DNA of 64,000 nt from a virus (lineage: Duplodnaviria; Heunggongvirae; Uroviricota; Caudoviricetes), in IMG/VR virus record IMGVR_UViG_3300042901_002340. One strand, given 5' to 3'. Position numbers and translations under genes: made by a program. The notes under the pieces were generated by a model. It made no database searches. It was given only the letters and a program-made list of their open reading frames with translations, and was not told the origin of the DNA. Below are positions 4,723 to 58,811 of this stretch, piece by piece. The stretch's first letter is position 1. Each line of letters begins with the position of its first letter.

Positions 4723-4744
4723 AACATGTATCCAGACATGTGAT

Positions 4745-5048: not shown

Positions 5049-5128
5049 ACCAGCGGTGCGGCGGATACATCTCTTTGTGCATCCCCATAATCTTTCTTCA
5101 TCCTTTTGACATCTTCCTACATCTTTTC

Positions 5129-5145
5129 CACCGTCGACAACGGTG
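5129..5145. promoter_or_regulatory. Motif A palindrome, copy 6
   Basis: caccgtcgacaacggtg; terminator at 5177-5203. Confidence 0.8.
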
Positions 5146-5230
5146 TGATCACGAGGCCTCCGAGACATTTGGTCACAAAAAAGGCTTTCTCGAAAGAAAG
5201 CCTGATTCTGAATTAAAACCTAACCTATTA

Positions 5231-5461
5231 TTATTTCCAATTATTTTCTTTTGTGTATGTGTATGTATCTGCACTTTCTGTGTCAGTGAAGGAGATAACA
5301 CCGTCGTTGCTTTTCAGTTCATATCTGTATCCGATTCCTTCCTCCAGGTCTCTTCTGGCGGTTTTCTCCGAAGCCCTTGATAGAACCATCCATAGGTCTA
5401 TGAGTGAATCGTGTGCTTCTTTATTTTGTGATTCTAAATCACCTAATGTTTTAAACTTCAT
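5231..5461 (-). CDS. hypothetical protein
   Basis: 76 aa, coupled to the upstream ORF. Confidence 0.6.
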   Translation of the reverse strand: MKFKTLGDLESQNKEAHDSLIDLWMVLSRASEKTARRDLEEGIGYRYELKSNDGVISFTDTESADTYTYTKENNWK

Positions 5462-5463
5462 AA

Positions 5464-5652
5464 TTACTCTCCTATTGTATAAACATCTACACCCGGGATG
5501 AGTGCTAATGTGCGTCCGTTATCCCAATCGACATGAATGTGTCCCATTCCATCCTCACCTCGGATAGTTCCTTGTTCCCCTGCTTTGATAGGATTTGGGT
5601 CATCTCCCATTCTTATCAATGTGATTCTTTTACCTTTGTGTCTTTCGTTCAT
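5464..5652 (-). CDS. DUF4314-like protein
   Basis: DDPNPIKAGEQGTI...GHIHVDWDNGRTLALIPGVD. Confidence 0.7.
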   Translation of the reverse strand: MNERHKGKRITLIRMGDDPNPIKAGEQGTIRGEDGMGHIHVDWDNGRTLALIPGVDVYTIGE

Positions 5653-5893
5653 AACTTTTTAATTTAATATGGCATTATATCAAAAACATAATCTGGTTCC
5701 ACACCAAAATCATATTCAAGTATCTCCTCGGGATTATCCCCATTCAGTACTCTAAGTTTTGCATCGGAGATTAATTTACTAGCTTCTTGGTCTGATAAAC
5801 CATCTCTTTCCATTAGGATTTTTTTTAAGCTCATAATGTTTTGATTTTAATTACATGCAAATATAAAGGATATTTCTTAGTTAAAAAAAATTA

Positions 5894-6169
5894 TTATTGT
5901 ATTTGTTTAAACTTTAACGGTTTGGCTATAGACATTATTTTTTTAACATCACGATCCCCTATTACAACCCCTTGTTCCCTAATAACATCACTGTATACCC
6001 AACCACGGGTCTCCGTTAATACACACATATTAATAAGAAAATTTCCATGTAAGATGTTTACCAGACCAGGATTTTTTATAACATAAGTTTCACCGTCGAT
6101 AAACTTATGACTTACTAGTATTCGGTCTAGTGCATTAAGATGTTTATAATATGTGAATGTTGATTCCAT
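5894..6169 (-). CDS. hypothetical protein (start revised to MESTF)
   Basis: TATATTTG promoter box sits just upstream of the ATG at 6169. Confidence 0.55.
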   Translation of the reverse strand: MESTFTYYKHLNALDRILVSHKFIDGETYVIKNPGLVNILHGNFLINMCVLTETRGWVYSDVIREQGVVIGDRDVKKIMSIAKPLKFKQIQ

Positions 6170-6248
6170 GGAGCAAATATAAGACATCATTTTTAAATAC
6201 CAATGATAAATCCGCACATTTTCAGAATAAATCCGCCTACATCCTGCC

Positions 6249-6265
6249 CACCGTCGCCGACGGTG
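6249..6265. promoter_or_regulatory. Motif A palindrome, copy 7 (perfect 8-1-8)
   Basis: caccgtcgccgacggtg; terminator at 6310-6341. Confidence 0.85.
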
Positions 6266-6510
6266 AACCATGCATTCCCATGCATTTATATGTCAAAATC
6301 ATGACACACAAAAAAGGCTTTCTTTATTATAAGAAAGCCTCTTTCAAAAAAAGAAGTGTGTGTAATTAAAACCTCTTAAGTCGTAGTGAATCTTTGATGA
6401 ATTCGAAGTCCGCTCCAGTTACACCGTCGTCGCCAAACTCATCTGCGATTAGGTCGTGTAACTCGTCCACGGTTTTTACTCCTCTGTCCTTTGCTTTTGC
6501 TTTGATTCTT

Positions 6511-6726
6511 TTATAAAGATCCTTCTGTTCCTTTGTCATTGTTTTTTATTTTTAAATATTCTGGTGCATCATCATAGAATATGGAAACATATTTGTTCTT
6601 ACCCTGTGTCCCACATGTTGCGAATTGGTGGCTATGAATAATGATACCTGGATGCTCACTCAGGAAATCGTTCATCTGCTCTTCTAGCTTTGAACAATTA
6701 TCATGTGTTCTTATGGTAAATTTCAT
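6511..6726 (-). CDS. Cse60/DUF2758-like small protein, one of three paralogues
   Basis: LEEQMNDFL..H..I.I......SIFY pattern shared with 7958..8143 and 29095..29280. Confidence 0.5.
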   Translation of the reverse strand: MKFTIRTHDNCSKLEEQMNDFLSEHPGIIIHSHQFATCGTQGKNKYVSIFYDDAPEYLKIKNNDKGTEGSL

Positions 6727-6796
6727 GTCCTATTATTTATAAAGCAAATATAAGAAATCCTTTTTATATACGCACGAGGCCAAACGTTAAAGTTCT

Positions 6797-6830
6797 CGCG
6801 TGGGTGTAGTATGTTAGTAATATAGTATGT
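6797..6830. promoter_or_regulatory. Motif B palindrome
   Basis: cgcgtgggtgtagtatgttagtaatatagtatgt. Confidence 0.7.
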
Positions 6831-6955
6831 TTCAGACATAAAAAAGGAGCCTATTGGCTCCTTTAAAAACATAACATGAATATCAAATTGAATGGTTAAA
6901 TCCTATTTAACAGATATTATAGTGAGGATAATATCTAATGTTTCGTTTTTATTTC

Positions 6956-7180
6956 TTACATTCTGGAAATGTTTATTTTCTCTACCGTGGTAAAGGAAGA
7001 TAATAAGCCATTACAACAATTTCCATCCTCCCAGGCAACAGAAACATAGAGCGAACTGTTATTGTGTTGTCCACCCCGTGTATAAACGTGTCCTATGCCG
7101 ACTTTGGGTGGTTGTGGGTTAAATCTAGATTTTGATTCTTGTGTGACTCTTACTGGGTCTCCTGGTCTTAATGTGCTCAT
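6956..7180 (-). CDS. hypothetical protein, paralogue of 3184..3534
   Basis: Shared motifs as above. Confidence 0.65.
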   Translation of the reverse strand: MSTLRPGDPVRVTQESKSRFNPQPPKVGIGHVYTRGGQHNNSSLYVSVAWEDGNCCNGLLSSFTTVEKINISRM

Positions 7181-7247
7181 GGTGTGATTGATTTTAATTA
7201 CATTGCTAATATAAGAAATCCTTTTTATATCCCAATGATTTAAAACG

Positions 7248-7884
7248 TTAAAGTTTTCCCATTTTATGAAGGAATGTTTCTTCCCTCATTGCACATATTC
7301 CTCTTCTCTTACACATTCTTGTGTATTCCTGATAGGTTATCGAATCCTTCTCCGCAAGTTCGTTTGCCATGTCTATGTTCAGAGCGATGTGGTGGGGTTC
7401 ACCGTGGAGTGTTTCTCTATGCCAAGCTATTATATTTTCCATTATGAATTTATTTTATCACATATTAAATGCCCAATGAACACAGAAGCAAGCGAGCATA
7501 TCATTATCCATCCTCTGGTATAAGCAAATCCCCAATTAAAAAGTATTAGAGATATGTGCGGTAGTGTGAGGATACAAAACACCGCTGCTGTTATGGCCAT
7601 TGCTAGGAATAGACCCAGAATCGGATCCTTTCTTTTATTCGTTCCCATAATTATTCCTCTTCCGTTGGTTCATAATCTTCGTCTATGACCTCATCCACCT
7701 CGATAATGACGTTGTCATGGTCTCCTTGCTCTCTCATCTCATCATCTTCCTCCTCAGTGAATCCAATTTTCTTTAGAGCTGCAAAGTAAGCTTTGTCTCT
7801 GTCCGTTGCTCTAACGAACACCACTGTTGGTGAATCCCAGTCATCTCTACTGGTGAACATCACGCAAAATAATATTTTTTCCAT
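7248..7884 (-). other. three-gene module of small hypothetical ORFs (7248..7442, 7442..7648 membrane, 7651..7884 acidic)
   Basis: Abutting ORFs under one promoter; last stop inside the GTTA junction. Confidence 0.65.
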
Positions 7885-7957
7885 ATTGTTTTGATTTTAA
7901 TTACATGTAAATGTAAGAAATTCGCAGTAGATACCACGATAAAATCCGTTAAAGTTT

Positions 7958-8143
7958 TTATTTAACGCCAGTCATTTCCAGTTTCCTGGTATAGAAAATT
8001 ATAACTGTTCCATATTGTGTGTCCTCACTGTGGGCGATCTGTACAATGGTAACACCGTCGTTGACCTCGAGCCAATCATTAATTAAACCCTCCAAATCAC
8101 CGGAGGATCTTTCCCTGAATATTTTGCATCTTAGTGTTGACAT
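7958..8143 (-). CDS. Cse60/DUF2758-like small protein
   Basis: LEGLINDWLE.N..V.IVQI.......VIIFY. Confidence 0.5.
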   Translation of the reverse strand: MSTLRCKIFRERSSGDLEGLINDWLEVNDGVTIVQIAHSEDTQYGTVIIFYTRKLEMTGVK

Positions 8144-8236
8144 GGAATTTGGTTTTAATTATAAAGCAAATATAATAAATCCTTATCAAACACCAAGATA
8201 ATCGGCCGATTATTTTTTCACATATAAAAGCATATA

Positions 8237-8253
8237 CACCGTCGGCCGAGGTG
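8237..8253. promoter_or_regulatory. Motif A palindrome, copy 8 (one mismatch)
   Basis: caccgtcggccgaggtg; terminator at 8289-8313. Confidence 0.7.
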
Positions 8254-8331
8254 TACCTCATGGCCCGTCCTAGGGATTCTTTGCCCATAAAAAAAGAGGC
8301 CGAAGCCTCTTTTAATACCGTGGACTACTGA

Positions 8332-8832
8332 TTACTCAGCAGTCTCTGCAACTGCTGCAGCCTTTGGAGCTTTAGCAGCCTTTGGTGCAGGTGCAGGTTT
8401 TTCTTCTTTCACGACCGGAGCCGTTACCACCGCTGTTGGTGCACCTTCTCCTACGATTAGGTTTTCCTCAGTTGTGTAGAAAATACGTGTTGAACCTGGT
8501 TTTTTAACTCTAATCAAGTTGGTTCCTGTTGGACCTTCGATGGCCAACTTTTCCAAGATGATTGCAGCACATGGCTTCATTTGAGCCGGAGTACCAGTTG
8601 CTTCTTTTTTACCGAAAACTTTCAAAGGAGAAACCAGTGAAGTTTCGATTCTTGAGCCAACTTCGAAGGCACCGTTGATGTGTGGTACAAGCGGTGCAGG
8701 CACCTCAGCCACTGAAGCCTCTGGACCTTCTACTTGAGCAGTTTCTTTGACAACCGCTTTTGCCATTTTTTCAACTTTCCCAGCCGGAGCTGCTACTGCG
8801 CTGTTTCCAGCTTTTTTTTCATTTTTGTTCAT
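8332..8832 (-). CDS. Ala/Lys/Pro-rich protein with low-complexity tails
   Basis: 166 aa, KAAKAPKAAA tail. Confidence 0.75.
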   Translation of the reverse strand: MNKNEKKAGNSAVAAPAGKVEKMAKAVVKETAQVEGPEASVAEVPAPLVPHINGAFEVGSRIETSLVSPLKVFGKKEATGTPAQMKPCAAIILEKLAIEGPTGTNLIRVKKPGSTRIFYTTEENLIVGEGAPTAVVTAPVVKEEKPAPAPKAAKAPKAAAVAETAE

Positions 8833-8927
8833 GGTGAATGATTTTTAATGATTAATTAATTACTTGGTAAATGTATAAAATTCTATTTAGATAAAAAAAT
8901 TATTTTAAGGTTTTTTTCGTTAAAGTT

Positions 8928-9422
8928 TTATCTTAATAACGAGACCAATCTCTTGGCGGATCTCTCTGAGGTATGTCTACTGTATATGTCACCACCGATT
9001 CTTACTGTGTGAGTATACTCAGGTTTACCCACCAGACCTTCGTTTGTGATTTCCATAGCAGGTTGATGGTACCTCGGGTGTTGATATAAAACCCTTGCCG
9101 ATGCTGCAGGTGAGGTTACTATCTTCACGATGCAACCATCTAAGATTGCTCCGCCACCGTGGCTGTTAATATTGGTAAGAAGAATTGGTACCTTAATCGG
9201 ACCGGAGCTTCTACCTATCTTGCCAGTCTTGTCGCTCTCCTCCATCCAGTCCCTGCCTGTCTCTCCATCACCGAGATATATTTTAACTCTTTGGTGCGTT
9301 CCTCTTAAGGAGTCTATGACCCTAATCACCTCATCCGAGGTTTCCGCTGAATAGTAGGTTCCTGAGTCGGATACTTTGTATACCTTGTCCTTGTCTCCTA
9401 CCTTATGTGTTTCTGTTTTCAT
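8928..9422 (-). CDS. hypothetical phage protein
   Basis: 164 aa; GRDWMEE...GRSSGPIKVP...GGGAILD motif. Confidence 0.75.
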   Translation of the reverse strand: MKTETHKVGDKDKVYKVSDSGTYYSAETSDEVIRVIDSLRGTHQRVKIYLGDGETGRDWMEESDKTGKIGRSSGPIKVPILLTNINSHGGGAILDGCIVKIVTSPAASARVLYQHPRYHQPAMEITNEGLVGKPEYTHTVRIGGDIYSRHTSERSAKRLVSLLR

Positions 9423-9571
9423 ATGATTTTAATTACAGAGCAAATATACGGAATAGGTTTTAAATACAAACGATCAAAAACGTTAAAGTTTTAGCCACGG
9501 TGTTTGCCATGGGACAGGCATAAAAAGAATCCATATGAAAAATAAAGGCATGCATGATGCATCATCCGGAA

Positions 9572-44300: not shown

Positions 44301-47300
44301 CTTTTTTCATATTAAAAATTTTCTTTGTGTTCTTCTTTAACTATTCTCCACTTTGCTGCTGGTGTGTCGAAATTTGTCCCAACCTCGGCCCAAAGTAGAA
44401 CCATCTTGTCGGTTTCTGTATTGATACACTTCTTATAGAACGATCCGGAGTTGTCCCAGGAACCTATTCCTCCAGTGAATAGATATTTTTTACCGTCTAT
44501 GACGTATGAAATATCATGATCCTCATTAGCTTTGTATCTGGAGAATCTTCTCTTTAGTTCGTGGAATTTTGGGTTCTCAATTACTGTCCTAATAAGCCAT
44601 CCCTTGAGTCCAGAAAATTCTGTTATCTCATTTGTGTAACCTGGTTTATTTAATATTCTGCATCGATAATAGTTTCCTCTTGACAGATTAAAATCCTTGT
44701 CTATTACGATGGTTTGTGCATTGGTTACAATTCTAAATGACACTGTTGAAAATTCGGAAGCTCCCTGCGGTGCTTTCACGTGGTCTCCTTTCCTCAAAGA
44801 ATAATCTTTAAACCCCTCGCCAACGGAAGTTAACTGATCCGTGCCTTCTCTGATTATATCGGACTCTGTGTATTTATGATTAAAATCTAACATTAGTTAT
44901 TTTATTTCAAGTATTGCACACTTAGCATTAGCAACATTTTCAAGATCCTCCATAGTGGCTTCTCTGACAATCTTTAATGAATTTTCCAATAGATAAATGG
45001 TGGAAACGAGAATGTTCCCATCCTCATCCTCGACGTCTATGATGTCCTCCCCACCTTCAGTTGGCCCTATAAGTTTAAATATTTTTCCGTCCAGAGATCT
45101 GTTAGTAGCTCTTGCGATAAATCTATCACCAGCCTCTATAGTTAGATCCTCGTCGATTAGAATTGCTCTTTTCGGAAGATTACTAAACCATTGATTTGAT
45201 TTAATAACGTCCTCTTCCGTTCTGCAGATGTTGTAAACACCGTCGCTGTTTCTGAAAAGGTGATTAACGTAGTCCTTGTGCTTGGTTAATTTTTCAACTG
45301 GAATATCTTTGATAATGGTTATCATAATTTGTTTTTATTTAATTGATTACATGACAAATATATGAAATCCTTTCCAAATAAAAAAATTATTTATCAATTA
45401 TTTTTATAGTGCTCGTTTGCTGCTTTTTTAAGTGTGGCAAGGGTTCCATATTCTCCTATCTGTTCACCACACATAGTAAACAGCTTATACTTAAGATCTG
45501 GTCTTCTGATATCAAAATAGTACGCGGTTTGGCGTCTTAAACCCATAAAATCCGTATATGACTGCTCGCTTCTGTATGTGTAGTTTTCTGTGTAGGAGAT
45601 TTCAGCTCGGTATCTTTCGTCGTTGTTGTTCCATTTTTTACCAGCATAGATTACTGAATTAACCACCATTGTTTTTGATGCTGGTGGTTCCTTAGTCATT
45701 GAGCTGGTTGAACCTGTTTTCTTAATGTCCTGGACAGCAAAGAAATGTAGTGGTGGTTTACTAACGTCTTTTAGCTCCTCTATTTCGAATTCTATTTTGT
45801 TGCAGTCTGCTAGTTTAGCCCAGAACCTAGCACTCTTAGGTCTACCAAAGGCACCGCTCCCTGTTCCTATACCCTCAGCATAAAAGGAGATTGATGACCA
45901 TTCTTCCAGTCCTTTTCTGATGTATATTCTATCAACCTTAAGAACTGTACCAAGTGGTATGGTAACAATTTTATCGTTTGGTTCGGTATCATTCCCACTT
46001 GTACGTCTCCACTCGAATGCGTCACCAAAGTGTTCAATTAGAGTCGAGTTTCTATGCTCGTAATGTAAAGTAAATGACCAATCCTTGGTTAGTCTTAGAC
46101 GATCACCAATTTCAGGTATGTATAATTGCATAATTAATTTTCGGTATCTTCAATGTTAAACTGTTCTCTTATCTTGTACTCGGCTTCTTTAATAACACCA
46201 TGTAGCATATCGATACTATGTAGCGCATCTTTCAATTTATTGTCCGCAATAATTGCAGCTTCATCATCAACAATTTTTTCTATTCCATCATATAATCTCT
46301 GGAGAAGTTTTGGTTCAACCTCGATTCCATTGATAACAAGTTTAATTTCGTAAATGTGTCCATCCTCTTCAGTTTGTTCTGGTGAATAGATCGTTTCATC
46401 TGTTAATGATGACAGCACTTCTTCACAGATCCAATCTTTTACCTTAGCCCTGGTTTTACTTACGATATCCTTAGATGTAATTCTCATGATTTATAATTTT
46501 ACTATTGTGAATATTTCTTTTTTTAATAACTCATCTCTGAGTGATTTAAACATCTTGATTGATTCTGGATCTTCGAATCTGTCCGTTGTTCCGTACTGTG
46601 GTAGAATAGCAATGGTTGCACTAAAATCAACATCAACACCAGATCTCCTCTTTATCTGGGTCTTGCATGATTGCCAATATTGACCCTGCCAGAAAGTTAG
46701 AAAAACCAATTTATAAACTGCCTTCTTGGCAGCATTTTCTGTGTAGTATACCTTTTTATCTCCATCGACCTGTACCCTATTACCTTTATAGAACACCCCA
46801 TACGTGTCCCTAAGTTTGAATTTATCCAATACTATTACTGACGAGTCAATAGCCTTTAAAATGCCTTCTGTTAGCTCCATATCTCCGATAATAGAATATT
46901 AAGTTTCTCTATTATATCAACCACCTCCTGTGTTCTGTCCTCAGTGTAGGAGTCTACCACGTTTCTTCCACTATAGTACTTTCCTCCATAACCAAGTTTA
47001 CCTTGAAATCTCCATTCCCCACACCCATCTTCTGACTCGCAGTGATGATATATGAAGGAATCCCTCATGTTCTCAGAAGCACCTCCTATAGAAACTAGAA
47101 GATCGTATATTTTCTGTGCTTTGCCTGCTGGTATAAGTTTTTCTTTCATTCTTTATCTCGTGTAGCTTTGTTTTGATTCAACATCTATTATTAGTGTTTC
47201 AGCTCCACCAGATTCCCAATCTCCATCACTATAATCAAAATTATATTTGATTCTGAATCTGGAAAGATGCTCATTCAGATGCGTCAATTCTGACTCATTT

Positions 47301-47930
47301 ATTTCTCTGTATCTTTTTCCTTCGACACCAACACGGTACTGAAAAAATTCTATTCCGATTGGTATCAGAAGAGCTATAAATTTTTCTATATCTTCGGAAT
47401 TAGAAAGCACTGATTCCCCACAATAATTACCTTCAGCTAATGCATCAATTATTGTTTTACCTATCCATTCCCAAACCCTTATAAAATCGTTATCGTTATG
47501 TACGATCATTATTCTTTTAATGTCGGATGTTTTCATATTTTAAATTTTTACCACCAGAAGATTCCTCCCCATATTAATACGAATGCTATCAATAGAATAA
47601 CATAGAATGGGGTTTCTATATCAAATCCATAGTCCCCTTTTGATTCGCCGCTACTCTTTCTTATCTTTATTAATAGTAATAAAACTATTATAATAAATGG
47701 TATTAGATTCCAGTGTATTGTTATCATAACTATTGAAAATCTGAGATTGAGTTGTTAAACTTAGCTCCGACCTGATTACCAGCCATAGCACCCATGCAAT
47801 ACATCTTACAGTATTCAAATGACTGTGGTCCTTCCGATGTAAGTAAAACGATATAGTCCGGATGGTTAACAGACATAGAAGTTACTATTAGTTTGTTTTT
47901 ACTCTTTACTAAATATACGAAATTTTTCAT
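41381..47930 (-). other. run of about 16 hypothetical ORFs, including 41685..42506, lipoproteins 42785..43048 and 43628..43948, secreted 43951..44310, and 45394..46131
   Basis: Abutting minus-strand ORFs under class II promoters near 45370 and 47970. Confidence 0.65.
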
Positions 47931-47986
47931 ACCTATTTGTTTTTAAATTGATATGCAAATATATGAAATCCTTTCGAATAAAAAAA

Positions 47987-49690
47987 TTATTCGGCAATTA
48001 TTTTTACGTACCCAGTGCCGTATTCTGTACTAAACCAAACCTTTTTGTCCTTTGGTAGATCAACCTTACCTGTTCCGTATATCGATGGAATATTAAGAGC
48101 TTTAGATAGTGCAAGTATATGGGAGAAGTTTGTATCGTTCTCAACTAGAAGCGCTTTCTTTCCTAATAAAGCCTCCGAATCACAGTCTTCCTCTACAACT
48201 AGAATGTCGTCAGTATTTACTTCCTCACCATTGTTAGAGTAGTATGGTTTAGAGAATGTTTTACCTATAACTATAGCTTTCTCTAGCTCCTCTTTTTGTG
48301 GTTCAAAGTTTACCTGTGGACTGCCTTTCAGCGTTCTAAATTGAACTATCCTGATGTCTCCCTCAGCAACTCTGACAAATTCCAGCTGGATGTCTTCTTC
48401 AAACGTGGTTGCAAGTTCTCTGGCAATTTTTCTTAGTGCCGATTGATCATCCAAACTTATTTCAAAGTTGGACTTTTTACCACCAACAATATCCCCTTGG
48501 ACGGAGCTGCATGCTATCTTTATATCGTATTCCATTAGATTTGCGTACTCTCTGGCATATCCCTTGCTAACTTCCCTTGTTTTAATACAATTAAGGACAC
48601 CATTCTTCCCTTCCAGATACTCCTGATAGAACCAATTTATTCGGTTTTTGCCACGTACCTCTTTATATTTTTCAAAATCCTGCTGGATTTTAATTACTGC
48701 ATTATGTGCTTCCTTCTCGTCGTTAGCTTTGATGCTATTAAGAAGTCCAGGAATTGAATATACTGGCGAGGTTCTAACGAAGTTAGATTTCCAATCTATT
48801 CTAAAATCTTTGGAAACTTCGCATGTTTTGATATGAGGAAAGAATTTTTTTAGAAACATTATGTTTCCGTACTTAGTACCCATTGCCTGTTTGTAACAGA
48901 AGAATTCTCTCATCCCTTCTGAAACAGATCTTTTCTCTGAGCTTGAATAATGCCGGAGATGATATTCTCTAAGCCTCCATAGTTCTGTCATCTGTTCATC
49001 GGTAAGATGATAGTTTTCATTAAGATCGAAATGTAGTGATTCCAACCCAAAAGCAGCAGCACCACATAGCATGTTGGATGATATTGATACTGCATCACAG
49101 TCCAACCTGTCCTCGCCTTTAACCAATCCCAATTGAACAAGAACTGGATAAAGTGAAACATGATCCTGGTAACCACACTGAGCAAATTCACCATTTCTCA
49201 TTAGTAGTCCAGAGATTGTTTGATCGTTCTGTGTTATTGCATCGTACAGTGTGGTTAATGTGTACCCTTCTTCCTCTATGATGTATTTGTAGCATCTCTG
49301 GTAGATTTCTTCAACCGTAAAATATTCTAAAAGAGTAACTATATCTCTATAACCAGATTTAGCAATCTCTCTTATCTCCATAGTTTTATTATTCCATCTG
49401 TCCTCTTTTCTGTTAGCTGAAACAATTGCTGTTCTGATAGCGTAGTATAATGTTTCATTGAAGTCTTCAGGTTCATCAGGTAGAAATTCACAACTTAAAC
49501 CTTCTTCGGTTCTTGTATCCCCACTCAACTTCATTCTGTAACTGAATGCTAATTTTTTCTGTGGTCTATCCAGATTACCGTCACCCAGTAACAAGTGATA
49601 CTTTTCAAACTCTCCGGATCTGAAGAAATCATCCATCAGACCCATGTAGGATTCGCCAGTGGTCCAAAAATGTAGTGTTCCTGATTCCAT
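47987..49690 (-). CDS. PEP-utiliser-like protein (divergent ATP-grasp segment plus C-terminal phospho-His swivel domain)
   Basis: DIQLEFV...IRIVQFRTL resembles the PPDK_N DIEWA...ILQAR; SHILALSKALNIPSIYG resembles SHAAIVARELGIP. Confidence 0.6.
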   Translation of the reverse strand: MESGTLHFWTTGESYMGLMDDFFRSGEFEKYHLLLGDGNLDRPQKKLAFSYRMKLSGDTRTEEGLSCEFLPDEPEDFNETLYYAIRTAIVSANRKEDRWNNKTMEIREIAKSGYRDIVTLLEYFTVEEIYQRCYKYIIEEEGYTLTTLYDAITQNDQTISGLLMRNGEFAQCGYQDHVSLYPVLVQLGLVKGEDRLDCDAVSISSNMLCGAAAFGLESLHFDLNENYHLTDEQMTELWRLREYHLRHYSSSEKRSVSEGMREFFCYKQAMGTKYGNIMFLKKFFPHIKTCEVSKDFRIDWKSNFVRTSPVYSIPGLLNSIKANDEKEAHNAVIKIQQDFEKYKEVRGKNRINWFYQEYLEGKNGVLNCIKTREVSKGYAREYANLMEYDIKIACSSVQGDIVGGKKSNFEISLDDQSALRKIARELATTFEEDIQLEFVRVAEGDIRIVQFRTLKGSPQVNFEPQKEELEKAIVIGKTFSKPYYSNNGEEVNTDDILVVEEDCDSEALLGKKALLVENDTNFSHILALSKALNIPSIYGTGKVDLPKDKKVWFSTEYGTGYVKIIAE

Positions 49691-49792
49691 TATTTTGTTT
49701 ATTGATTACAAGGCAAATATATTAAATTATTTTTGGATAAAAAAATTATTGGATATATTTTTTGATATATAGATGATAAAATACAACTAAAT

Positions 49793-50473
49793 ATGGAAAA
49801 TTTAAAATCTTTTGGTGAATTTATTAACGAGGCTACTCTTAATCCGGCTTTAGCTTTTGGTAATGCGTTTAACGCCAAACCTGAAGTGGATAGTGATATT
49901 GAGGATTCATCAGATATGGATGCTCCTGACACCAACGACCAGGTAACTCTTAAAAGTTTAGGTTTAACTAACACTTCTTCCGGAAGCATATTTACACCGT
50001 TGGATCTTAAAACCGCTTCTGGATTCAAAACTTATTCAGATATTGCTCAGAAGTGGATCAATAAAACAAACCCATCATCCCCAATAAAAGGTGAAATGCT
50101 GGCCAACGGTGCGAAAAAAGCCCTACTAGACCATGGATCTTATATCCCTCCACAACTTGCACTTGCCCAGCTAACAATGGAAGGTGGACTAAGTAAGGAT
50201 CCTAAGGTTAAACCAATTAGAACAAAAAATCCATTCAATGTTGGTAACGTTGATAGTGGAGCAGTTGTTAAACATAGCAATTGGCAATCTGGTATCGACG
50301 CATACTTTAAAACTATGGCCAAGAATTATGTGGTTCCATCACAGAATAAAACTGCTACAGGTCTGCTTAATAGGTTTGTCAATACTAAAAATCAGAGATA
50401 TGCTTCAGCTTCAAATTACGAGAAATCGATAACGTCAACAATAAATAGTATAAATAAAACACTAACCGCATAA
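49793..50473 (+). CDS. glucosaminidase-like muralytic protein with MENLKSFGEFINE N-terminus
   Basis: LALAQLTMEGG...NPFNVG...W..GI.AY; GATATATAG promoter. Confidence 0.7.
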   Translation: MENLKSFGEFINEATLNPALAFGNAFNAKPEVDSDIEDSSDMDAPDTNDQVTLKSLGLTNTSSGSIFTPLDLKTASGFKTYSDIAQKWINKTNPSSPIKGEMLANGAKKALLDHGSYIPPQLALAQLTMEGGLSKDPKVKPIRTKNPFNVGNVDSGAVVKHSNWQSGIDAYFKTMAKNYVVPSQNKTATGLLNRFVNTKNQRYASASNYEKSITSTINSINKTLTA

Positions 50474-50501
50474 AAAAGTCCGATAGAAATATCGGGCTTT
50501 T
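50471..50501. terminator. bidirectional terminator
   Basis: aaaaaagtccgata-gaaa-tatcgggctttt. Confidence 0.8.
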
Positions 50502-50684
50502 TAGTTTTGCGTGATGCTTCCAAATAGAGTTATTCGCATATTAGTTAGCAGAAATTAAATTATGTCACACTTCATTTTTGTTAAATAAAATCAGAATATA
50601 GTGACCTAAATATATAAACTTTTCTTCACAAATCTTTATAATTTTTTGGTTTTTCATATTATAATTAATTGGAAATTAGAGTTT

Positions 50685-50724
50685 TATAAAAAGGTATTTA
50701 TATATACTAGTTACCTGCAAGCAC
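50685..50724 (+). other. attI/attG-like entry site of the cassette array (GTT at 50710)
   Basis: GTTACCTGCAAGCAC complements the left end of attC1 at 13/15, but no hairpin arm lies to its left. Confidence 0.65.
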
Positions 50725-50787
50725 TACTGACCTGCATCAAATAAAGTTCCGTGAGAAAAACTTTTATTAAAATTTCCCACCGCACAA

Positions 50788-51153
50788 TTAATCAGGAACT
50801 TCATCTCTTAAATTGTGTGTTCTTTGACCTTGCAATAGTTCCGCTACTTCGTAATCAATATATATTTTTGTGTGTGGATTATGGTTTCTAAACAAATACC
50901 TTATCGCAGGTTCAACAGCAGAATCAAAATCATCTCCGTTGTATGTTTTTGAAAATTTAGAATAGGGAAAGTGAAATTTAACTTTGTCCTCAATCCATTT
51001 TTCAATTTCATCAAACTTTTCAATTTCAAATATTTCCACTTCCTTAAAACCATTCATTCGGTCTCCAATTTTTATCTGTATTCCAGAATCCCACATCCAA
51101 TCTATTAGGATGTTAATTTCACTTTCATAAAGTGCTTTTAATAGTGTTTTCAT
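50788..51153 (-). CDS. cassette 1 hypothetical protein
   Basis: 121 aa inside the 50710-51412 segment. Confidence 0.7.
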   Translation of the reverse strand: MKTLLKALYESEINILIDWMWDSGIQIKIGDRMNGFKEVEIFEIEKFDEIEKWIEDKVKFHFPYSKFSKTYNGDDFDSAVEPAIRYLFRNHNPHTKIYIDYEVAELLQGQRTHNLRDEVPD

Positions 51154-51155
51154 AA

Positions 51156-51374
51156 TTATGTTTTTATTGGTTTAAAATCTGTTATTTTATCATTGTGGTA
51201 TTGCTCTAAAAATTCAGCCACAAATGATTTCTTGTCAAAAGATGCAAATGACACGCCTGTTTTTCTGTCAGATAAAACAATTCGTTTGCTTTTGATGTTT
51301 CTTCTGATTTCAATTTCTAAGTATTCTTTTTTCCCTTCGCTCATTTTAATAAAAGTTTTTTGTTCGTGTTCCAA
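51156..51374 (-). CDS. cassette 1 hypothetical protein (TTG start)
   Basis: 72 aa; in-frame TAG 13 nt upstream limits the start. Confidence 0.5.
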   Translation of the reverse strand: MEHEQKTFIKMSEGKKEYLEIEIRRNIKSKRIVLSDRKTGVSFASFDKKSFVAEFLEQYHNDKITDFKPIKT

Positions 51375-51405
51375 ATTAAGTTCCTGCTAAATTTACCGTG
51401 CCAGC

Positions 51406-51537
51406 AGGTAACACACGTTTGGCAAAAGTGGCGGTGCAGTACTCCGCTCGACATTTACTGCAAGGTTCAACATTCGTTCTACGCATTGGAATTTGTGGTT
51501 AAAATCGCCACCTTCGCCAAGCGTGGGAACGTTAGCA
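51406..51537 (+). mobile_element. attC-like site 1 (132 bp)
   Basis: aggTAACacacgtttggcaaaagtggcg ... cgccaccttcgccaagcgtgggaacGTTAgca. Confidence 0.88.
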
Positions 51538-51972
51538 GTAACTTTTGAAAAGCGTAACGCAAATCAGAATAATTAATGCTATAAAATTTATCCAATTAAA
51601 AAATCTTACATTTTGATACCAAGCGGAATCAACTATAAAATTTCTTGCACCATCAAAATACATCAAAGGAATAAAAGTTATCAATCTAAATGGAATCCAT
51701 AATAAATTGAAAATTATACACCAAATTGTTATTTGTAATCCTGTAATTGGTAGTTTAATTCCTTTATGTAATTGCCTAAATGAAAATGTTGTAAAGTCAA
51801 AAAATAAATATACATAATGACCTTTTTTAATATTTTTACCTATTCTGAAAAATCCGTTATGAAAACCAAAATAATGTTTGTCATAATTAGAAAATTTACG
51901 AACCTTAAAGAATAAAGCTACTGCTAACAGCATTTTGTGGCAATTGCGGGGTTTAGGTTTATTTTCAAGCAT
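51532..51972 (-). CDS. cassette 2 membrane protein
   Basis: 146 aa; ATG inside the attC2 loop; TAA stop inside the GTTA of attC1. Confidence 0.75.
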   Translation of the reverse strand: MLENKPKPRNCHKMLLAVALFFKVRKFSNYDKHYFGFHNGFFRIGKNIKKGHYVYLFFDFTTFSFRQLHKGIKLPITGLQITIWCIIFNLLWIPFRLITFIPLMYFDGARNFIVDSAWYQNVRFFNWINFIALIILICVTLFKSYC

Positions 51973-52057
51973 TGTTTTTTAATTTAAAGATTAGTCTATT
52001 CTTGTGTGGTCTAGGTTAATTCGTCCGCAACTGACCACAAGATGCGAAACGTTATAA
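51922..52057 (+). mobile_element. attC-like site 2 (136 bp)
   Basis: tgcTAACagcattttgtggcaattgcgg ... ccgcaactgaccacaagatgcgaaacGTTAtaa. Confidence 0.88.
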
Positions 52058-52063
52058 GTAACT

Positions 52064-52483
52064 TTACTCAGCGTTGCGTTTAAGAAATCTATTAAATTTA
52101 CTATCATTGTTTTTGGTTGGTAATTTTGTTAAGTATTCAATCAAAAAACTATTTTTTGCATGTTTATGATTTATCGGAAATCCACTTTCTTCATCAAATT
52201 CTTTTGCAGTTTCCCAAAATAAATGCTCTTTAAAACTGTTAATAACACTATGAGAATCTCCCTCTCCCCAATAGTCTTGTGTCCATTCGTGTAATTCAGG
52301 TAAACATTCTCTAAAAGCGTATTTATTTTTACCTTTTCTTCTTCTTTGTCTTTTGCCATAAAGAAGATACTCCCAACCTAAATGTTTTAAATTAATTCTT
52401 AATATTTCAAAAATTCCTTTTTTATACATTAGCTTTAAAATCCTTTTTTCATCTTTAAGATGTTTTCTGATATATTTTTTCAT
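52064..52483 (-). CDS. cassette 3 basic hypothetical protein
   Basis: 139 aa filling the segment between attC2 and attC3. Confidence 0.75.
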   Translation of the reverse strand: MKKYIRKHLKDEKRILKLMYKKGIFEILRINLKHLGWEYLLYGKRQRRRKGKNKYAFRECLPELHEWTQDYWGEGDSHSVINSFKEHLFWETAKEFDEESGFPINHKHAKNSFLIEYLTKLPTKNNDSKFNRFLKRNAE

Positions 52484-52498
52484 AACTAAAAAAGCTAC

Positions 52499-52631
52499 TT
52501 ATAACAACTACTACAAGCAATAGCTAGAATAGTCATTGAATTAATAATTAATTTTTGTTTGTTGTCATTCGGTCAAACTCCGATGTTTTGGCTTGTTTGT
52601 CCGCTACTGCCTGTAGTAGCAAACGTTATAG
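52499..52631 (+). mobile_element. attC-like site 3 (133 bp)
   Basis: ttaTAACaactactacaagcaatagc ... gctactgcctgtagtagcaaacGTTAtag. Confidence 0.88.
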
Positions 52632-52646
52632 CACATTAAAACGATG

Positions 52647-52779
52647 CTATAACAAAGTATAAAAGCAATAACCTAACTTGCGTGGCATCTCTATACTCTC
52701 GTATATATTTTTTTCCTTTATCCACTCTCGAAGCTACATTTCTAAGGTCTGTTACTGCTTATACACTCAACCGTTAGCG
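52647..52779 (+). mobile_element. attC-like site 4 (133 bp)
   Basis: ctaTAACaaagtataaaagcaataac ... gttactgcttatacactcaaccGTTAgcg. Confidence 0.85.
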
Positions 52780-52785
52780 GAAATG

Positions 52786-52995
52786 CTATGGACACCTAAA
52801 TCCATTGTGAACTATTTCCCACTCCCAATATTTTGAGTTGTTTTTTCTAACTCTATTTTCTGACCAACCTTGCTTATACCAAACAAACTGATAAGGATTA
52901 GACTTACGAGAAGCACTTCCGCTAACATCGGTTTGTTGCAAGCGGGGCTTCTGTGGTTTAATGAAGTGTAGTAATTCTAATAATCTTCGTATCAT
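52786..52995 (-). CDS. cassette 5 small protein
   Basis: 69 aa; ATG in the attC5 loop; attC arm encodes KPRLQQTDVSGS. Confidence 0.65.
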   Translation of the reverse strand: MIRRLLELLHFIKPQKPRLQQTDVSGSASRKSNPYQFVWYKQGWSENRVRKNNSKYWEWEIVHNGFRCP

Positions 52996-53053
52996 AATTT
53001 AGAGTTTTGTGTTTCTAATTCCCCGCCTGACAACAAGCCGAGAAACGTTATGG
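52920..53053 (+). mobile_element. attC-like site 5 (134 bp)
   Basis: cgcTAACatcggtttgttgcaagcgggg ... ccccgcctgacaacaagccgagaaacGTTAtgg. Confidence 0.9.
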
Positions 53054-53233
53054 TTAATTTAACCACTCAATACCACTATGAATTCGTGAAACTGTAACAT
53101 CATCATCTAACATAATTAAGTCAGTATAATTGAAATAATCCGTGACTGTATATTTAATACCATTGTATTTCACTTTTCTACCAATTAAACTAACCATAAC
53201 ATCAGATATATTCAATTTTTTATTCTCTTCCAT
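53054..53233 (-). CDS. cassette 6 small protein (59 aa, not in the ORF track)
   Basis: MEENKKLNISDVMVSLIGRKVKYNG...GIEWLN; ATG in the attC6 loop. Confidence 0.7.
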   Translation of the reverse strand: MEENKKLNISDVMVSLIGRKVKYNGIKYTVTDYFNYTDLIMLDDDVTVSRIHSGIEWLN

Positions 53234-53316
53234 GAATTTATTATTTTAGATTACAAAGGTAAACATTTATTTTCAATTTTCAAAATAAAACTGAATATAT
53301 CTGAGTATCGTTATTC
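53194..53316 (+). mobile_element. attC-like site 6 (123 bp), carries an internal promoter
   Basis: ccaTAACatcagatatattca ... tgaatatatctgagtatcGTTAttc. Confidence 0.82.
53254..53284 (-). promoter_or_regulatory. Bacteroidota-type promoter inside the attC6 loop
   Basis: TTTG, 19-nt spacer, TACCTTTG, then the ATG at 53233. Confidence 0.75.
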
Positions 53317-53712
53317 TCCTGTTTCTTCCTGGAATTCTTGAGCCATCCAATCGACAAAATTTGGTTCAGAAATCTCCTCAATCTCCCCCATCTCAAATTC
53401 TATTTCTTCTTCCCTACGGTTTACCCCAGCATTGAATGAGAACTCCATGTCCTCTCTAGTAAATCCTCCAAGTTTTCTAATCAACTCTTCCCTCTGTTTA
53501 GAGTTAATAGTTAATACTGCACAGGATCCTTGTTCATATTCACCTGCAGCGTTCTCCAGTATGTAGTCTGCATATTCACCAAGGTCTTCAAAGTCTTCTT
53601 CATCAAACTCCTCGTCATTCTCTGAGATTTTAATTGTTTCAACTCTAACCTCTTCGTTGAGAGATCCTCTTACCGCTATGAGGATGTGCTCCTCTTCCTG
53701 TACTTTTGCCAT
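53311..53712 (-). CDS. acidic hypothetical protein
   Basis: 133 aa; TAA stop inside the GTTA of attC6. Confidence 0.75.
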   Translation of the reverse strand: MAKVQEEEHILIAVRGSLNEEVRVETIKISENDEEFDEEDFEDLGEYADYILENAAGEYEQGSCAVLTINSKQREELIRKLGGFTREDMEFSFNAGVNRREEEIEFEMGEIEEISEPNFVDWMAQEFQEETGE

Positions 53713-54034
53713 TGTTTATGATTTTTTTTCTAATTTATTTACTATTAAGACTCCAAGAGGACCCGATACTGCGGCAATTAGCATTATTAACCAGATTGGA
53801 TAAACGTACCCATGGTAGTGACCTGTGTCAATATCCATTGTAAAAAATGCAATGAAGTGAGGTAGTGTTAGTAAAAAGTATACCCCAACTGACATTATAA
53901 TTGTCATCGATAATTTTTGTAATTGATTCATATTGGTTTATTTTAATTGCAAGACAAATATATGAAATTCATTTTAAATAAAAAAATTATTAAAGATATT
54001 TTTTTGATATATAGATGACAAAATACAACTAAAA

Positions 54035-54874
54035 ATGGAGAGATTAAAAAGTTTTAATGAATTTATAAATGAGGATGAATTCAAAATAGATGATCCTTCA
54101 AAAGCAGGTACACAGTTGGTTAATACTATTTCCCAGAATGTACCAGCTCATGAAGTCGGTAACAATAGTGGTGCTGTTGTCAATAAGTTTCAAAGATCTG
54201 TTGGTATATCCGATGGACAACCTTGGTGTATGGCTTTCATATACTATATCTTTGAAGAATTCAGTAAAAAATTGGGAATTACTAATCCGGTATATAAAAC
54301 TGGATCAACGTTGGACGAATGGGAAAAAACAAAAGGTAAAAAGATAACGGCGGAACAAGCAAAATCCAATTTTTCCTTGGTTAAACCCGGACAAATAATG
54401 ATAGCAAAAAGGGAAGGCGGCGGACATGCTGGTATAGTTACTAGTGTTGATTATAATGGGAAGAAATACACAACTATTGAAGGTAATGTTGGAATAGGTG
54501 GAGGAAAACAAGGGGTTGGATCATATAATAGGTCAATCCTAGTAGAGGGGCTTATCGGCTTTATTGATTATTTTCCGGATAGAAGTCCTGAATTTGATAG
54601 TAGTTTTATCTCAGCAATGAAGGGTGCAAAGCTAACTGATGCGAGCAGAAATGCAGTGGTTAGATCCCTACCTGGTGACGATATTATCGGTGGTGACTCT
54701 GCAGCTAGTTCTGCTGAGGAAGATAAAAAAAATACTTCCGGTGGACTTCTTGGTAAGATAGTTAGTGGGGCTAGAAAATTTACAAGTATAGGTAGGAAGG
54801 AAGAGGACGGTGGTGATGATAGCATAAGTGCAAAGGATGCAGTTGAAGCATTTGGTAGAGTAACGGGAAAATAA
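54035..54874 (+). CDS. CHAP-domain amidase/peptidase with MERLKSFNEFINE N-terminus
   Basis: PWCMAF...GHAGIV...TIEGN catalytic motifs; GATATATAG promoter; terminator at 54893-54921. Confidence 0.85.
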   Translation: MERLKSFNEFINEDEFKIDDPSKAGTQLVNTISQNVPAHEVGNNSGAVVNKFQRSVGISDGQPWCMAFIYYIFEEFSKKLGITNPVYKTGSTLDEWEKTKGKKITAEQAKSNFSLVKPGQIMIAKREGGGHAGIVTSVDYNGKKYTTIEGNVGIGGGKQGVGSYNRSILVEGLIGFIDYFPDRSPEFDSSFISAMKGAKLTDASRNAVVRSLPGDDIIGGDSAASSAEEDKKNTSGGLLGKIVSGARKFTSIGRKEEDGGDDSISAKDAVEAFGRVTGK

Positions 54875-55764: not shown

Positions 55765-55826
55765 TCTATCTGTTTTTAATTACATTGCAAATATATGAAA
55801 TTCATTTCAAATAAAAAAATAATTTT

Positions 55827-58811
55827 TCAATTAAATTTTCTATATGGTTCAACTGAAATGACTCTTGATTTATAATACGAGCTCTCTAGACACTTAGGGC
55901 AAAGGTTTCTCCCATATACTCCATTTTTTGGAGTACTTGGATTTACATTCATCGTTGCGATCTTAATTTGGTCCTCTATAAAGTCATTATAGCAACCTCC
56001 ACACATGATAATGGATTCTTTTTTCTTCTTTCCCATAGTAAAAAAATTAGGGGATTCAAGAATAAACCCAATCCCCAGGCTGATCATTGGTTACAGACCA
56101 ACTACAACTACAACAAAATTTTAAATATTTTCGCTCCTATCAGTTTCCTTGTTGTTAACTGAAACTGCTTTCATGAATATTATCACGAGAACCGCTCCAA
56201 ACCAACTATTTAGACTTAGCTTAACAGGGAATCCTATGTATTGCAGTCCAAGAACTAGAGACAATGGCAGGCAAATAGCTATTGCTACAGCTGCTATCAA
56301 GCCCAATAGGATAAGTCCTATATTCTTTTTGCTCTTTCCGCTCTTTAGTATTTTTTCTATTAATCCTTTCATAGCTTATAAAGTTATTCCAAATTCGTTA
56401 ACCTCGTCCCTTTTTCCTATTGACCATGTTGAGTTACCATCTATAAGGATTTCAACTATCTGACCATATTTAGAATTGGATGATATTCTAGTAATGTAAT
56501 TTGCAGGATTTTTAATTTTATCGTAAGTAAACGATTTACCGCTTTGATAGATGACAGTTACGTCATATCCTCCAGGTTTTAGACTTAGAGGATTTGTTCT
56601 GAAGTCATCTCCAACGTGAATGTTTTTCCCCATTTTATTTTCCGTTAAAAGGATCCATGTCCTTGTTAGGTATTAGATTCCAGCTTTTTTCTGCTCCTGG
56701 CGATTGCATGATGCTTATTGATTTTGCTTTCTCTTTTAGTAAGATTAAGGCTTGCTCCATATCACCATCAGCAATAATAGCTCTGATTTCCTTTGCTATA
56801 TCAGTGGCAACATCAACCATATAAAGAACAGAATGTCTTTGTCTGTTAGCGTTGACCGTTAGAGCCATAAGTGATAGCTCTCTTGGGTCCGCAGCGAATG
56901 TGTCTGTCTTCGCACTGAATGGAACTGGAAGGAATGATTCTATTCCGTTTGCACTGGCTATTCCGTAGTATTTCATTTTCTTATGTTTTTAATTGTTAGG
57001 CAAATATAATAATAAAAATCGAATAAAAAAAATATTTTTCGATTTTTTTTAATGGAGGAGGATCGATTTAGTTTAAGATCTCTCCTCCGTATATATTGGG
57101 CTTTGGTTATATATCAATGATCTTCCCAGTATTTTCTTCTTGTTGAATCGATGTAACTTAAAGTTAGAGGCACGTCGAAAAAAAAATTATAGTACTCTTC
57201 ATTGGTTGGTGGTTTTATTTCCTTCAACTTCCAACTCATAACGAGGGAATCTATTTCACCCCTTTTCACCGTCTTTATTTTTAGAAGTCTTTCGTTTCTT
57301 AGTTTGTTTCTTACCTCGTTGCCACCAGCCTCCTTGATACATTTTTTTAGAATGTATTTTTTTCTAAGAGTTCTTATTTTTCTCTTTAACATCCTTAGAA
57401 GTTTCATCCTTAAAATGTTTTATTCTTTCTTCGAGTACTTTTTCACTAAGATCGAATCCCTCGCTAATTAGATGTTCATGGAGACCTGATTTGTCTATCT
57501 TTTTATTCGCTTGATAGTATTTTTCAATTATTCTAAAAATAATATCTTCTTTAGTTGCTCTTTCCATTATTTAGATGGTTTGTTAACCAACATTGATATA
57601 CAATGCAGCATAATTGTGCTCTTGTCTTCTGGATTGATTATACTGGAATCCAATTCTCTTCTTAGAGCTTCTGCTTGGAGATATACGCTTCTCGCTATTT
57701 TCTTGACTGCTTTGTCGTAATCCACTAATAGTGCCTCTGTTTTTCCGTCCATGTTTGATGGTTTATTTTAAATTTGGTTTACCGCAGATCTTTATTACGC
57801 ATTTGTAACAAGTTACTGCTGTAGCCTTTTCGTCAACATTTGTGACTTTTTCTCCGCATAGTTTACACGGCATGCTTTTTGATGTTCTGGCTTTATTGTA
57901 ACTAGAACCTCCTGAGTTTTTAGTAGTAGCCATCTGCTTCAAGTTGTTTAAGTTCATTAATAACATTTTGGTCAGGTATAACTTCTCTCCCGGGCATATG
58001 CTCACTAACGAATTTTTGTAGAAATCCGCATCTCTCGTATTCCTCTCTTTCCAGAAACAGAGCTGTCATTCTGTTTATTGCACTACCTATTGATTCCTCG
58101 GTGCTTCCTTCCATGGCTTTTGATCCTTGCTTGGCAAGCAGATCGTATGCAACATAACAGCCATCTATAAAACTCCTTAATGTTTCCCTTCTGGTTCTTT
58201 CCGCTACCTCTCTGGCTTGTTCTTCAAGATACCCGTTGATATCTTCTCCTAAGTCATCATCGTCATTTTCGTACATATTACTCTATAATGTTAATTTTAT
58301 TTACTAGATCCAACTCTTTAGCTTCCCTATAAAGGGTTCCTCCCTCTGAGACTATCTCCATTTCACCTTCGAAAATGGAACTCGTGTCCCTGTAGATTTT
58401 TTCTCTAACAATGGCTCCTCCTGCAAGGTATGTTCTGTTCTTGATTTCGTCGTGTTTTTTCCTATTATCAGTTTTACATACAAATCTTATTGCTGCCATA
58501 TTTAATGGTTTTTTTATATATGTATTCTAGTATAAAAAATCACAAAAATTTCATTAGACAATAAAAAATTACACTTCAGAGTCCCTCATCGAATTGATGT
58601 ATCCTTTGAATAGAATTTTCTCTCTGCCATTCATGGTAGAGTGAAACTGTTCAAAGTTTCCTGATGAAGCTTTAAAGTCTTGGATTAGAAGATTGAGTGT
58701 TCTACTTTCTACCTGTGTTTTAATCTTTGGTGATTTTGTGCGATTTTTTCTAACCTGTGGTTGTGTGGTGGTGGCAGCATCTACCTTCATTTTGCCTCTT
58801 AGTCTTTCCAT
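55827..58811 (-). other. run of about 11 small hypothetical ORFs, including 56635..56976 and 57920..58276
   Basis: Compact minus-strand ORFs. Confidence 0.6.

Follow-up and report, generated by a model that had tools for sequence, protein, structure and literature searches.

A six-cassette attC array with inverted genes in a 430-kb phage genome

Integrons are usually seen as a bacterial gene-capture device, with cassettes that almost always read toward their attC site. A locus in IMG/VR record IMGVR_UViG_3300042901_002340 raises the question of what such recombination sites do in a phage that has no integrase, and why the genes between them all face the other way. The record (genome G000) comprises 430,120 bp with direct terminal repeats, so the array is phage-borne, as an initial annotation made from the sequence alone had held. 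We analysed a 64,000-nt stretch of this genome (the window; minus strand of G000:C1:104150-168149), on which nearly all open reading frames (ORFs) run on the minus strand, hereafter the coding strand. Positions 50711-53310 of the window are a six-cassette CALIN (cluster of attC sites lacking an integrase). Phage arrays of this kind combine the same recombination sites with opposite gene polarity and no integrase. As a whole, the locus is best explained as an inverted CALIN in a megaphage, probably assembled by a host enzyme at a secondary G|TT site.

Anatomy of the hairpins and the cassettes between them

The six imperfect TAAC-to-GTTA hairpins that had first drawn attention to the locus are all present, within 2.6 kb (array span 50710-53313), and measure 117-130 nt on the + strand. 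Along the coding strand, each site opens with the TAAC of the R′ box; an invariant G and a TTYC-like bulge of 4 nt lead into a stem of ~20 bp and a loop of 50-80 nt, and the return stem is followed by an invariant T and the GTTA of the R′′ box. Extra unpaired bases had been described in the right arm near GTT; they correspond to the 4-nt bulge (GRAAC) immediately before GTTA on the + strand, joined in that arm by one extra base at some sites (attC2, attC5). The asymmetric unpaired bases thus sit on the minus-strand arm beside TAAC, which sets the polarity of the site and defines its bottom strand. Conservation is concentrated at the ends: across 26 phage sites, TAACG and (T)GTTA vary little or not at all, and the same holds for AACG and TGTT across 33 bacterial sites.

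Each cassette also pairs with itself from end to end. The complementary ends reported earlier were recovered as inverted repeats (I19, I13, I15, I17 and I12), each 15-16 nt long and 87-94% complementary. A second count gave 14/16 for three cassettes and 10/16 for the one that has no ORF. Pairing across a site, i.e. with the end of the neighbouring cassette, amounted to 5-7/16, except for two cassettes that share a consensus end (13/16).

For a genome-wide search, a covariance model (R1) was derived from an alignment of 26 sites from the window and related loci. It returned six matches at 47-121 bits, all of them in the array and on one strand, the next match having an E value of 0.33. Because R1 includes the window's own sites, we built a second, independent model (R2) from 33 sites, all from bacterial chromosomal arrays, two of which (23 of the 33 sites) lie beside IntI/Xer-like recombinases. 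Across the 64 kb, the R2 matches to the array all lay on the minus strand: attC1, 2, 5 and 3 scored 83, 81, 81 and 79 bits (E ~1e-15; best 4e-16), followed by attC4 (28 bits, E 3e-4) and, marginally, attC6 (15 bits, E 0.16); no position besides the window sites fell under E 0.1. A model that has seen bacterial sites only hence finds four of the six at 79-83 bits and five at E values from 4e-16 to 3e-4, which bears out the earlier assignment to the attC type. A scan of the 430-kb genome for simple AAC...GTT hairpins likewise confined sites of this kind to the array.

Covariation points the same way: RNAalifold, run on the 26 aligned sites, predicted 19 pairs with compensatory changes in 14 of them, alongside loops that are unrelated to one another, as originally noted. 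When folded as single-stranded DNA, five of the six sites adopted the predicted structure, with modest z-scores (-1.7 to -3.1); attC4 stood at -0.09. Judged from these sequence and folding comparisons, the window hairpins are attC sites of the Bacteroidota-type integron family.

The locus has at least two neighbouring attC sites and no integron integrase nearby, which makes it a CALIN. It is not a complete integron (intI, attI and cassette promoter, Pc), as the genome has no tyrosine recombinase and the left junction is a bare G|TT. Nor are its cassettes canonical: a canonical ORF occupies the top strand of attC and is followed by that attC, whereas in all five ORF-bearing cassettes here the ORF is on the bottom strand. 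Searches with the tyrosine recombinase family PF00589 and the IntI model TIGR02249 gave zero matches across the whole 430 kb, and the same was true of PF01797, the IS200/IS605-type Y1 HUH transposase. These results give no support to a self-encoded integrase or an HUH mechanism. The features of the array, in window coordinates, are as follows.

50473..50502, either strand: bidirectional terminator hairpin at the end of the operon, with the array between it and the resident gene
50710..50713, + strand: left junction, G|TTA with no hairpin on its left; the first, attI-like position in the top-strand sense
50711..51531, - strand: cassette C0, 821 bp, with ORFs 51156-51374 (72 aa) and 50788-51153 (121 aa, P0002); attC1 precedes them on the coding strand
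51409..51534, - (bottom) strand: attC1, R2 83.1 bits, R1 82.7 bits
51532..52051, - strand: cassette C1, 520 bp, with a hydrophobic ORF, 51532-51933 or 51532-51972 (133-146 aa)
51925..52054, - strand: attC2, R2 80.8 bits, R1 121.1 bits, expected fold obtained
52052..52625, - strand: cassette C2, 574 bp, with ORF 52064-52483 (139 aa, P0001)
52502..52628, - strand: attC3, R2 79.4 bits, R1 90 bits
52626..52773, - strand: cassette C3, 148 bp, ORF-less, essentially attC4 plus a 21-nt core
52650..52776, - strand: attC4, a weak site, R2 28 bits (E 3e-4), R1 60.7 bits, fold z -0.09
52774..53047, - strand: cassette C4, 274 bp, with a small ORF, 52812-52928 (38 aa) or 52786-52995 (69 aa, start in the attC5 loop)
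52923..53050, - strand: attC5, R2 80.7 bits, R1 111.4 bits, fold z -3.06
53048..53310, - strand: cassette C5, 263 bp, with ORF 53054-53233 (59 aa, start in the attC6 loop)
53197..53313, - strand: attC6, AT-rich and divergent, R1 47.3 bits, R2 15.1 bits (E 0.16), fold z -2.91
53310..53313, + strand: right junction, where the TTA of G|TTA doubles as stop codon for the resident gene 53311-53712
53311..53712, - strand: resident phage gene upstream of the array, kept in the sister phage

In cassette C1, too, the stop codon of the ORF (TAA) coincides with the TTA of G|TTA.

Polarity of the cassette genes

The initial annotation had all genes inverted relative to their sites. We scored, for each cassette between two adjacent sites, the strand of the longest ORF against that of the model. 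In bacterial arrays, this ORF lay opposite the model strand in 32 cassettes and on it in 3 (unclear in 3), as compared with 0 opposite and 34 on the model strand (5 unclear) in phage and phage-like arrays. Given that bacterial ORFs lie opposite the model strand, that strand is the bottom strand of attC, and the phage genes are encoded on it. In the window, all ORF-bearing cassettes carry the gene on the bottom strand with its own attC upstream, and full inversion was found in this array and in at least eight other phage or phage-like arrays. Published primers agree: the bottom-strand primers designed for phage attC sites read TAACG...TGTTA, i.e. the same polarity (PMC9892861). One of the sites concerned, P12002L_attC1, maps to the gene strand of the Polaribacter phage P12002L, in which R1 finds five sites, all on the gene strand. 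The inversion of phage ORFs relative to bacterial arrays is thereby supported by three independent lines, namely ORF strand, natural insertions and deletions (see below) and the published primers. A first reading, by which the array would be canonical on the minus strand with the longer arm beside the ORF, was overturned by the bacterial arrays and by the latter two lines.

The strict contrast seen here (0/34 versus 32/35) bears on what sets the orientation of a cassette ORF. In the sedentary chromosomal integrons of Vibrio, inverted cassettes are mostly toxin-antitoxin pairs with their own promoter and form a minority within canonical arrays. The phage cassettes resemble those of Vibrio (for the system, see PMC13108822) in having an ORF antisense to the array and, as a Vibrio feature, expression independent of Pc, and differ in that here the whole array is inverted. 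Among the bacterial arrays analysed, one (L068) has three inverted cassettes and another (L066) has one, which carries P0002.

How much of this is new? The initial annotation had known of no description of such an architecture. Arrays of attC sites without intI, with small cargo genes, have in fact been published for lytic and temperate phages (Qi et al. 2023, Front Microbiol, PMC9892861), so novelty is limited to the inversion, for which the literature searched contained no description of a systematic reversal of cassette ORFs in phage arrays. Those phage CALINs comprise 2-3 predicted sites per phage, the polarity of their ORFs was left unremarked and the P12002L sites were called "divergent" (PMC9892861). 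P12002L (NC_028924) is the closest case, its sites being of the window type (R1 15.6-39 bits, gene strand). What sets the present locus apart from that study is its six sites in a 430-kb phage, a polarity established by comparison with bacterial arrays and a sister phage in which the corresponding site is empty.

Acquisition of the array and the likely recombinase

The empty site was found in phage G405 (434.5 kb, ~80% nucleotide identity, colinear on both flanks), which was reached via a 567-aa neighbour gene; an exact-match search of viral contigs for the predicted empty site returned nothing, and a peptide-pattern search found no relatives of the 133-aa resident gene. Window 53742-53308 aligns with L064 6747-7175 of this sister phage at 81%, and window 50508-47726 with L064 7182-9965, which leaves window 50509-53307 without a counterpart. 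In G405, the stop codon of the resident gene is followed by ~24 nt and then by the same terminator hairpin, and no attC site of the array type occurs anywhere in its genome. In the window, 2600 bp of array and ~200 bp of AT-rich DNA stand between the resident stop codon (TAA|C) and the terminator (50473-50502), and the boundaries of the insertion relative to the sister phage fall at G|TT. Going by this alignment, the array is an insertion specific to this lineage, made at a G|TT position through which the upstream operon reads. The AT-rich DNA between array and terminator (50509-50710, ~200 bp), absent from the sister phage, contains a 30-aa ORF (50565-50657, minus strand) and the sequence ...CTGCTAAC, which resembles a cassette end; the stretch may be a decayed cassette.

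IntI-mediated insertion of cassettes at genomic secondary sites (attG, 5′-GNT-3′) has been reported (Loot et al., bioRxiv 10.1101/2022.09.11.507474). Such attG insertions share with our locus a position outside any attI, a bare G|TT in a transcribed region and expression by read-through; they concern bacterial genomes to which the integrase is supplied, whereas here the target is a phage genome and the enzyme would come from the host.

The composition of the array hints at its source. On the coding strand, the loops pooled over phage sites contain 50% A as compared with 33% in bacterial sites, attC1 being of the bacterial type. This site is homologous, loop included, to bacterial chromosomal attC sites (L060 5379, L059 8143 and L061 6575). 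Since attC1 occupies the attI-proximal end, and its cassette gene P0002 also occurs in a bacterial array, the arrangement fits a recent acquisition from a host array.

Related arrays differ by recent indels of single cassettes. When cassette content was compared among them, gains and losses broke exactly at AA|C (equivalent to G|TT). Specifically, L010 and L011 differ by one 346-bp unit, composed of a hairpin and its downstream ORF and flanked by the 7-nt repeat TAACGTT; L011 and L012 part exactly at the TAAC 5′ of a hairpin; and L012 has one further unit of hairpin and ORF inserted at the junction of backbone and array, a position equivalent to the left junction of the window array. All three natural breakpoints lie at AA|C on the coding strand, which corresponds to G|TT of R′ on the opposite strand. 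Since the break at TAA|C falls 5′ of the hairpin as read on the coding strand, a hairpin travels with the ORF downstream of it.

Such exchanges bear on whether the window array is still part of a living system. We consider it unlikely that it is a dead relic, that is, an array fragment captured once, now inert and merely co-transcribed with the upstream operon. That the phage has no integrase, that the sister phage lacks the whole array, that attC4 and attC6 are degenerate and that 200 bp of AT-rich DNA (50509-50710) came along with the insertion would all agree with such a history; it is nonetheless at odds with boundaries that lie exactly at G|TT / TAA|C, directly after a stop codon, with four sites that score ~80 bits in the bacterial model and with the recent single-cassette indels in related arrays. 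The bacterial-type attC1 at the attI-like end suggests stepwise additions, and the all-inverted content is like that of other phage arrays and unlike a fragment of a bacterial one.

As we favour a host enzyme, candidates are of interest that adjoin sites of the same attC type in bacteria, in genomes of the phylum to which Ignavibacteriales and Flavobacterium belong. One genome (G180) encodes a full-length IntI (TIGR02249, 449 bits), followed by a canonical array with at least 12 sites, among whose intergenic sites the best match to R1 scored 28.8 bits and eleven others were weak, with the same strand and architecture. In the stretches read from two further genomes, G016 and G051, the arrays number 13 and 10 sites (42-107 bits); a genome-wide search of G016 gave ~25 sites over 20 kb, and within 2 kb of each array lies an IntI/Xer-like recombinase of 310-346 aa that reads toward the large array:

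L068 11327-12367 (G016): array-adjacent tyrosine recombinase
L069 1276-2208 (G051): array-adjacent tyrosine recombinase

These shorter enzymes match TIGR02249 in two stretches (model positions 2-179 and ~230-315; ~200 bits in total) and score slightly higher, ~210 bits, with NF040815 (XerA/integron integrase), in both cases under the curated cut-off. Falling below the TIGR02249 cut-off, they would be missed by standard IntI thresholds. The unmatched middle may be the place where canonical IntI has its extra domain. Canonical IntI was present in 113 of 401 sampled genomes of the phylum, and the attC type in about half of the 80 genomes searched.

In phage and bacterial sites alike, the R box is extended to 10+4 bp, position 11 being mismatched, and the G and T beside AAC and GTT are invariant. 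The idea that an end complementarity of 12-16 bp is a phage adaptation was rejected on the grounds that bacterial arrays have the same 10+4 bp pattern. Overall, the window array is like the chromosomal arrays of Bacteroidota and Ignavibacteria (G180; G016 and G051) in the architecture and family of its attC sites, in its R box and in the P0002 cassette. It differs from them in having no recombinase (adjacent in the bacteria), cores of 21-700 bp (bacterial cores are mostly 300-1000 bp long and reach 1.9 kb), mostly A-rich loops and exclusively bottom-strand ORFs (top-strand in 32/38 bacterial cassettes).

A phage-autonomous system is very improbable. It would rely on an unrecognised non-tyrosine recombinase of the phage and ascribe the likeness to attC to a common single-stranded-DNA hairpin mechanism, a view to which one might be led by the presence of arrays in phages without a tyrosine recombinase (G000, G003 and G004), by the restriction of the inverted layout to phages and by the large share of phage genes that lack a known function. 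The same sites, however, fill bacterial arrays adjoining IntI-type genes, the crossovers sit at the canonical IntI cleavage position, we identified no candidate gene common to the array phages, and a Y1 HUH transposase is absent. We can practically dismiss the notion that the hairpins are RNA-level or repetitive extragenic palindromic (REP)-like elements (RNase III sites, terminators or mRNA stabilisers) with no role in DNA recombination: they do lie between co-transcribed genes, their coding-strand folds include G-T/G-U pairs and their loops are A-rich on that strand, but cassette ends pair with each other across 120-700 bp and not across the hairpin, units of hairpin and gene are gained or lost whole at AA|C, the same cassette core recurs in unrelated neighbourhoods, the bacterial counterparts are on the non-coding strand and no Rfam family matched in the window at the gathering threshold.

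The lack of a tyrosine recombinase in the phage thus leaves a CALIN most likely assembled by a host IntI-type enzyme. By this host-dependent route, the CALIN would have entered at a secondary G|TT site that the resident gene 53311-53712 provides with its stop codon (TAA|C), upstream of the operon terminator. Its sites are of the attC type that fills chromosomal arrays of Bacteroidota and Ignavibacteria, with an R box extended to ~15 bp. An IntI-type tyrosine recombinase supplied by the host would act in trans on the folded bottom strand, with crossover at AA|C, so that cassettes could be inserted, excised and exchanged. Each gene is preceded by an attC of its own that forms its leader, and the array runs in the direction of phage transcription. 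The A-rich loops may serve as unstructured 5′ leaders, which would suit organisms that do not rely on Shine-Dalgarno pairing.

Several observations weigh against this scenario. The phage itself encodes no recombinase, so that action in trans is an inference. IntI1 recombined five of six phage attC sites tested, and the sole failure, P12002L_attC1, was also the sole site of the window type among them (PMC9892861). At a strict cut-off, the attC type was found in 19/40 genomes with IntI and 18/40 without it, i.e. there was no association, which we attribute to the arrays adjoining shorter recombinases under the TIGR02249 cut-off; in 4/5 of such genomes searched, a shorter IntI/Xer-like gene lay 1-12 kb from an array. 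Within the window, attC4 and attC6 are weak under the bacterial model R2, and attC4 folds no better than shuffled sequence (z -0.09). A 98.5% identical core of 458 nt is shared by L007 (3847-4569) and L011 (1449-2108) between attC sites that are unrelated on both sides, which a single R′ crossover does not explain and for which an occasional R′′ exchange or top-strand events would be needed. Finally, attC loops show no enrichment of TAnnTTTG, the -7 promoter motif of Bacteroidota (3/47, coding strand). A promoter within the loops was rejected on this count and because sigma-70-like sites occurred at the level of shuffled sequence.

A wider reading, which we hold tentatively and at slightly less than even chances, is that phages of several bacterial phyla keep a mirror-image cassette pool of their own and swap accessory genes (e.g. 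for DNA modification) by way of host integrases, the inversion being functional. Inversion could make a cassette self-contained, with its own leader, or could make the recombinogenic strand coincide with the non-template strand where phage DNA is highly transcribed. If host integrases do act on these sites, small accessory genes, possibly with counter-defence roles, would be exchanged site-specifically among phages and host arrays, which, if true, would open a further path for genes to pass between phage and bacterial pools. All this can be tested directly, as the sites, the predicted crossover, the empty site of the sister phage and candidate bacterial recombinases are all defined.

Cargo genes, other phages and neighbouring repeats

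Two cargo genes of the window array could be traced elsewhere. P0001 (139 aa) has 60 homologues at 50-96% identity; searches of Pfam, PHROGs, the ESM Atlas and deposited phage genomes returned nothing for it. Its core recurs with the same GTTA...TAAC ends between different attC sites in L001, L007, L009 and L010-12, and is present without flanking attC hairpins in the temperate phage contigs L004 and L006. P0002 (121 aa) has 56 homologues, in phage contigs and in bacterial arrays; in the bacterial array L066, it is an inverted cassette adjoining a canonical HEPN cassette. The C1 protein matched neither Pfam nor PHROG families. We infer that the cassette genes are phage accessory genes with no assigned function.

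The layout recurs in phages of other sizes and lifestyles. The 15 sites of a 37-kb phage without a tyrosine recombinase (G003, 98% complete) are split between two arrays, and L009 has 9 sites in 5 kb; further instances are a phage-like contig with a diversity-generating retroelement (DGR; L001), a temperate Flavobacterium phage (L004) and the cultured Polaribacter phage P12002L. In L001, an Ignavibacteriales-binned phage contig, the DGR lies just upstream of the cassette array (7290-7560 and 7668-8624) and consists of a template/variable repeat (TR/VR) pair with A-specific differences beside a 318-aa reverse transcriptase. This reverse transcriptase was rejected as cassette-related, being a DGR enzyme with its own TR/VR pair. 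Genes for DNA methyltransferases are a recurrent cargo beside the sites of phage arrays (L004 14623-15420; L063 29248-32126 and 38118-38816; L067 11934-12896), as was likewise noted for phage CALINs by Qi et al. (PMC9892861).

Three kinds of repeat were seen outside the array. On the minus strand of window 1309-9487, the motif TTTAACGTTTnnnATCRTT occurs seven times (chance expectation 0.01), each copy being followed ~25-30 nt on by a TAnnTTTG-like box (TATATTTGC) and then by a small ORF. In sequence, these copies resemble a family of phage promoters of Bacteroidota type; their core TAACGTTT is shared with the R′ end of attC. An intergenic repeat of ~60-130 nt is interspersed at window 45323-45405, 47924-48006, 49690-49830, 53926-54081 and 55773-55839, and recurs in the sister phage at 7 places within a 17.7-kb syntenic stretch (L064 60-109, 4894-4965, 6694-6768, 7941-8013, 11425-11512, 14354-14426 and 15767-15850); from its distribution, it may be a shared regulatory element. 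Elsewhere in the genome, at G000:C1:220021-220508, five tandem units with a period of 120 bp each contain the palindrome TAACGTTA.

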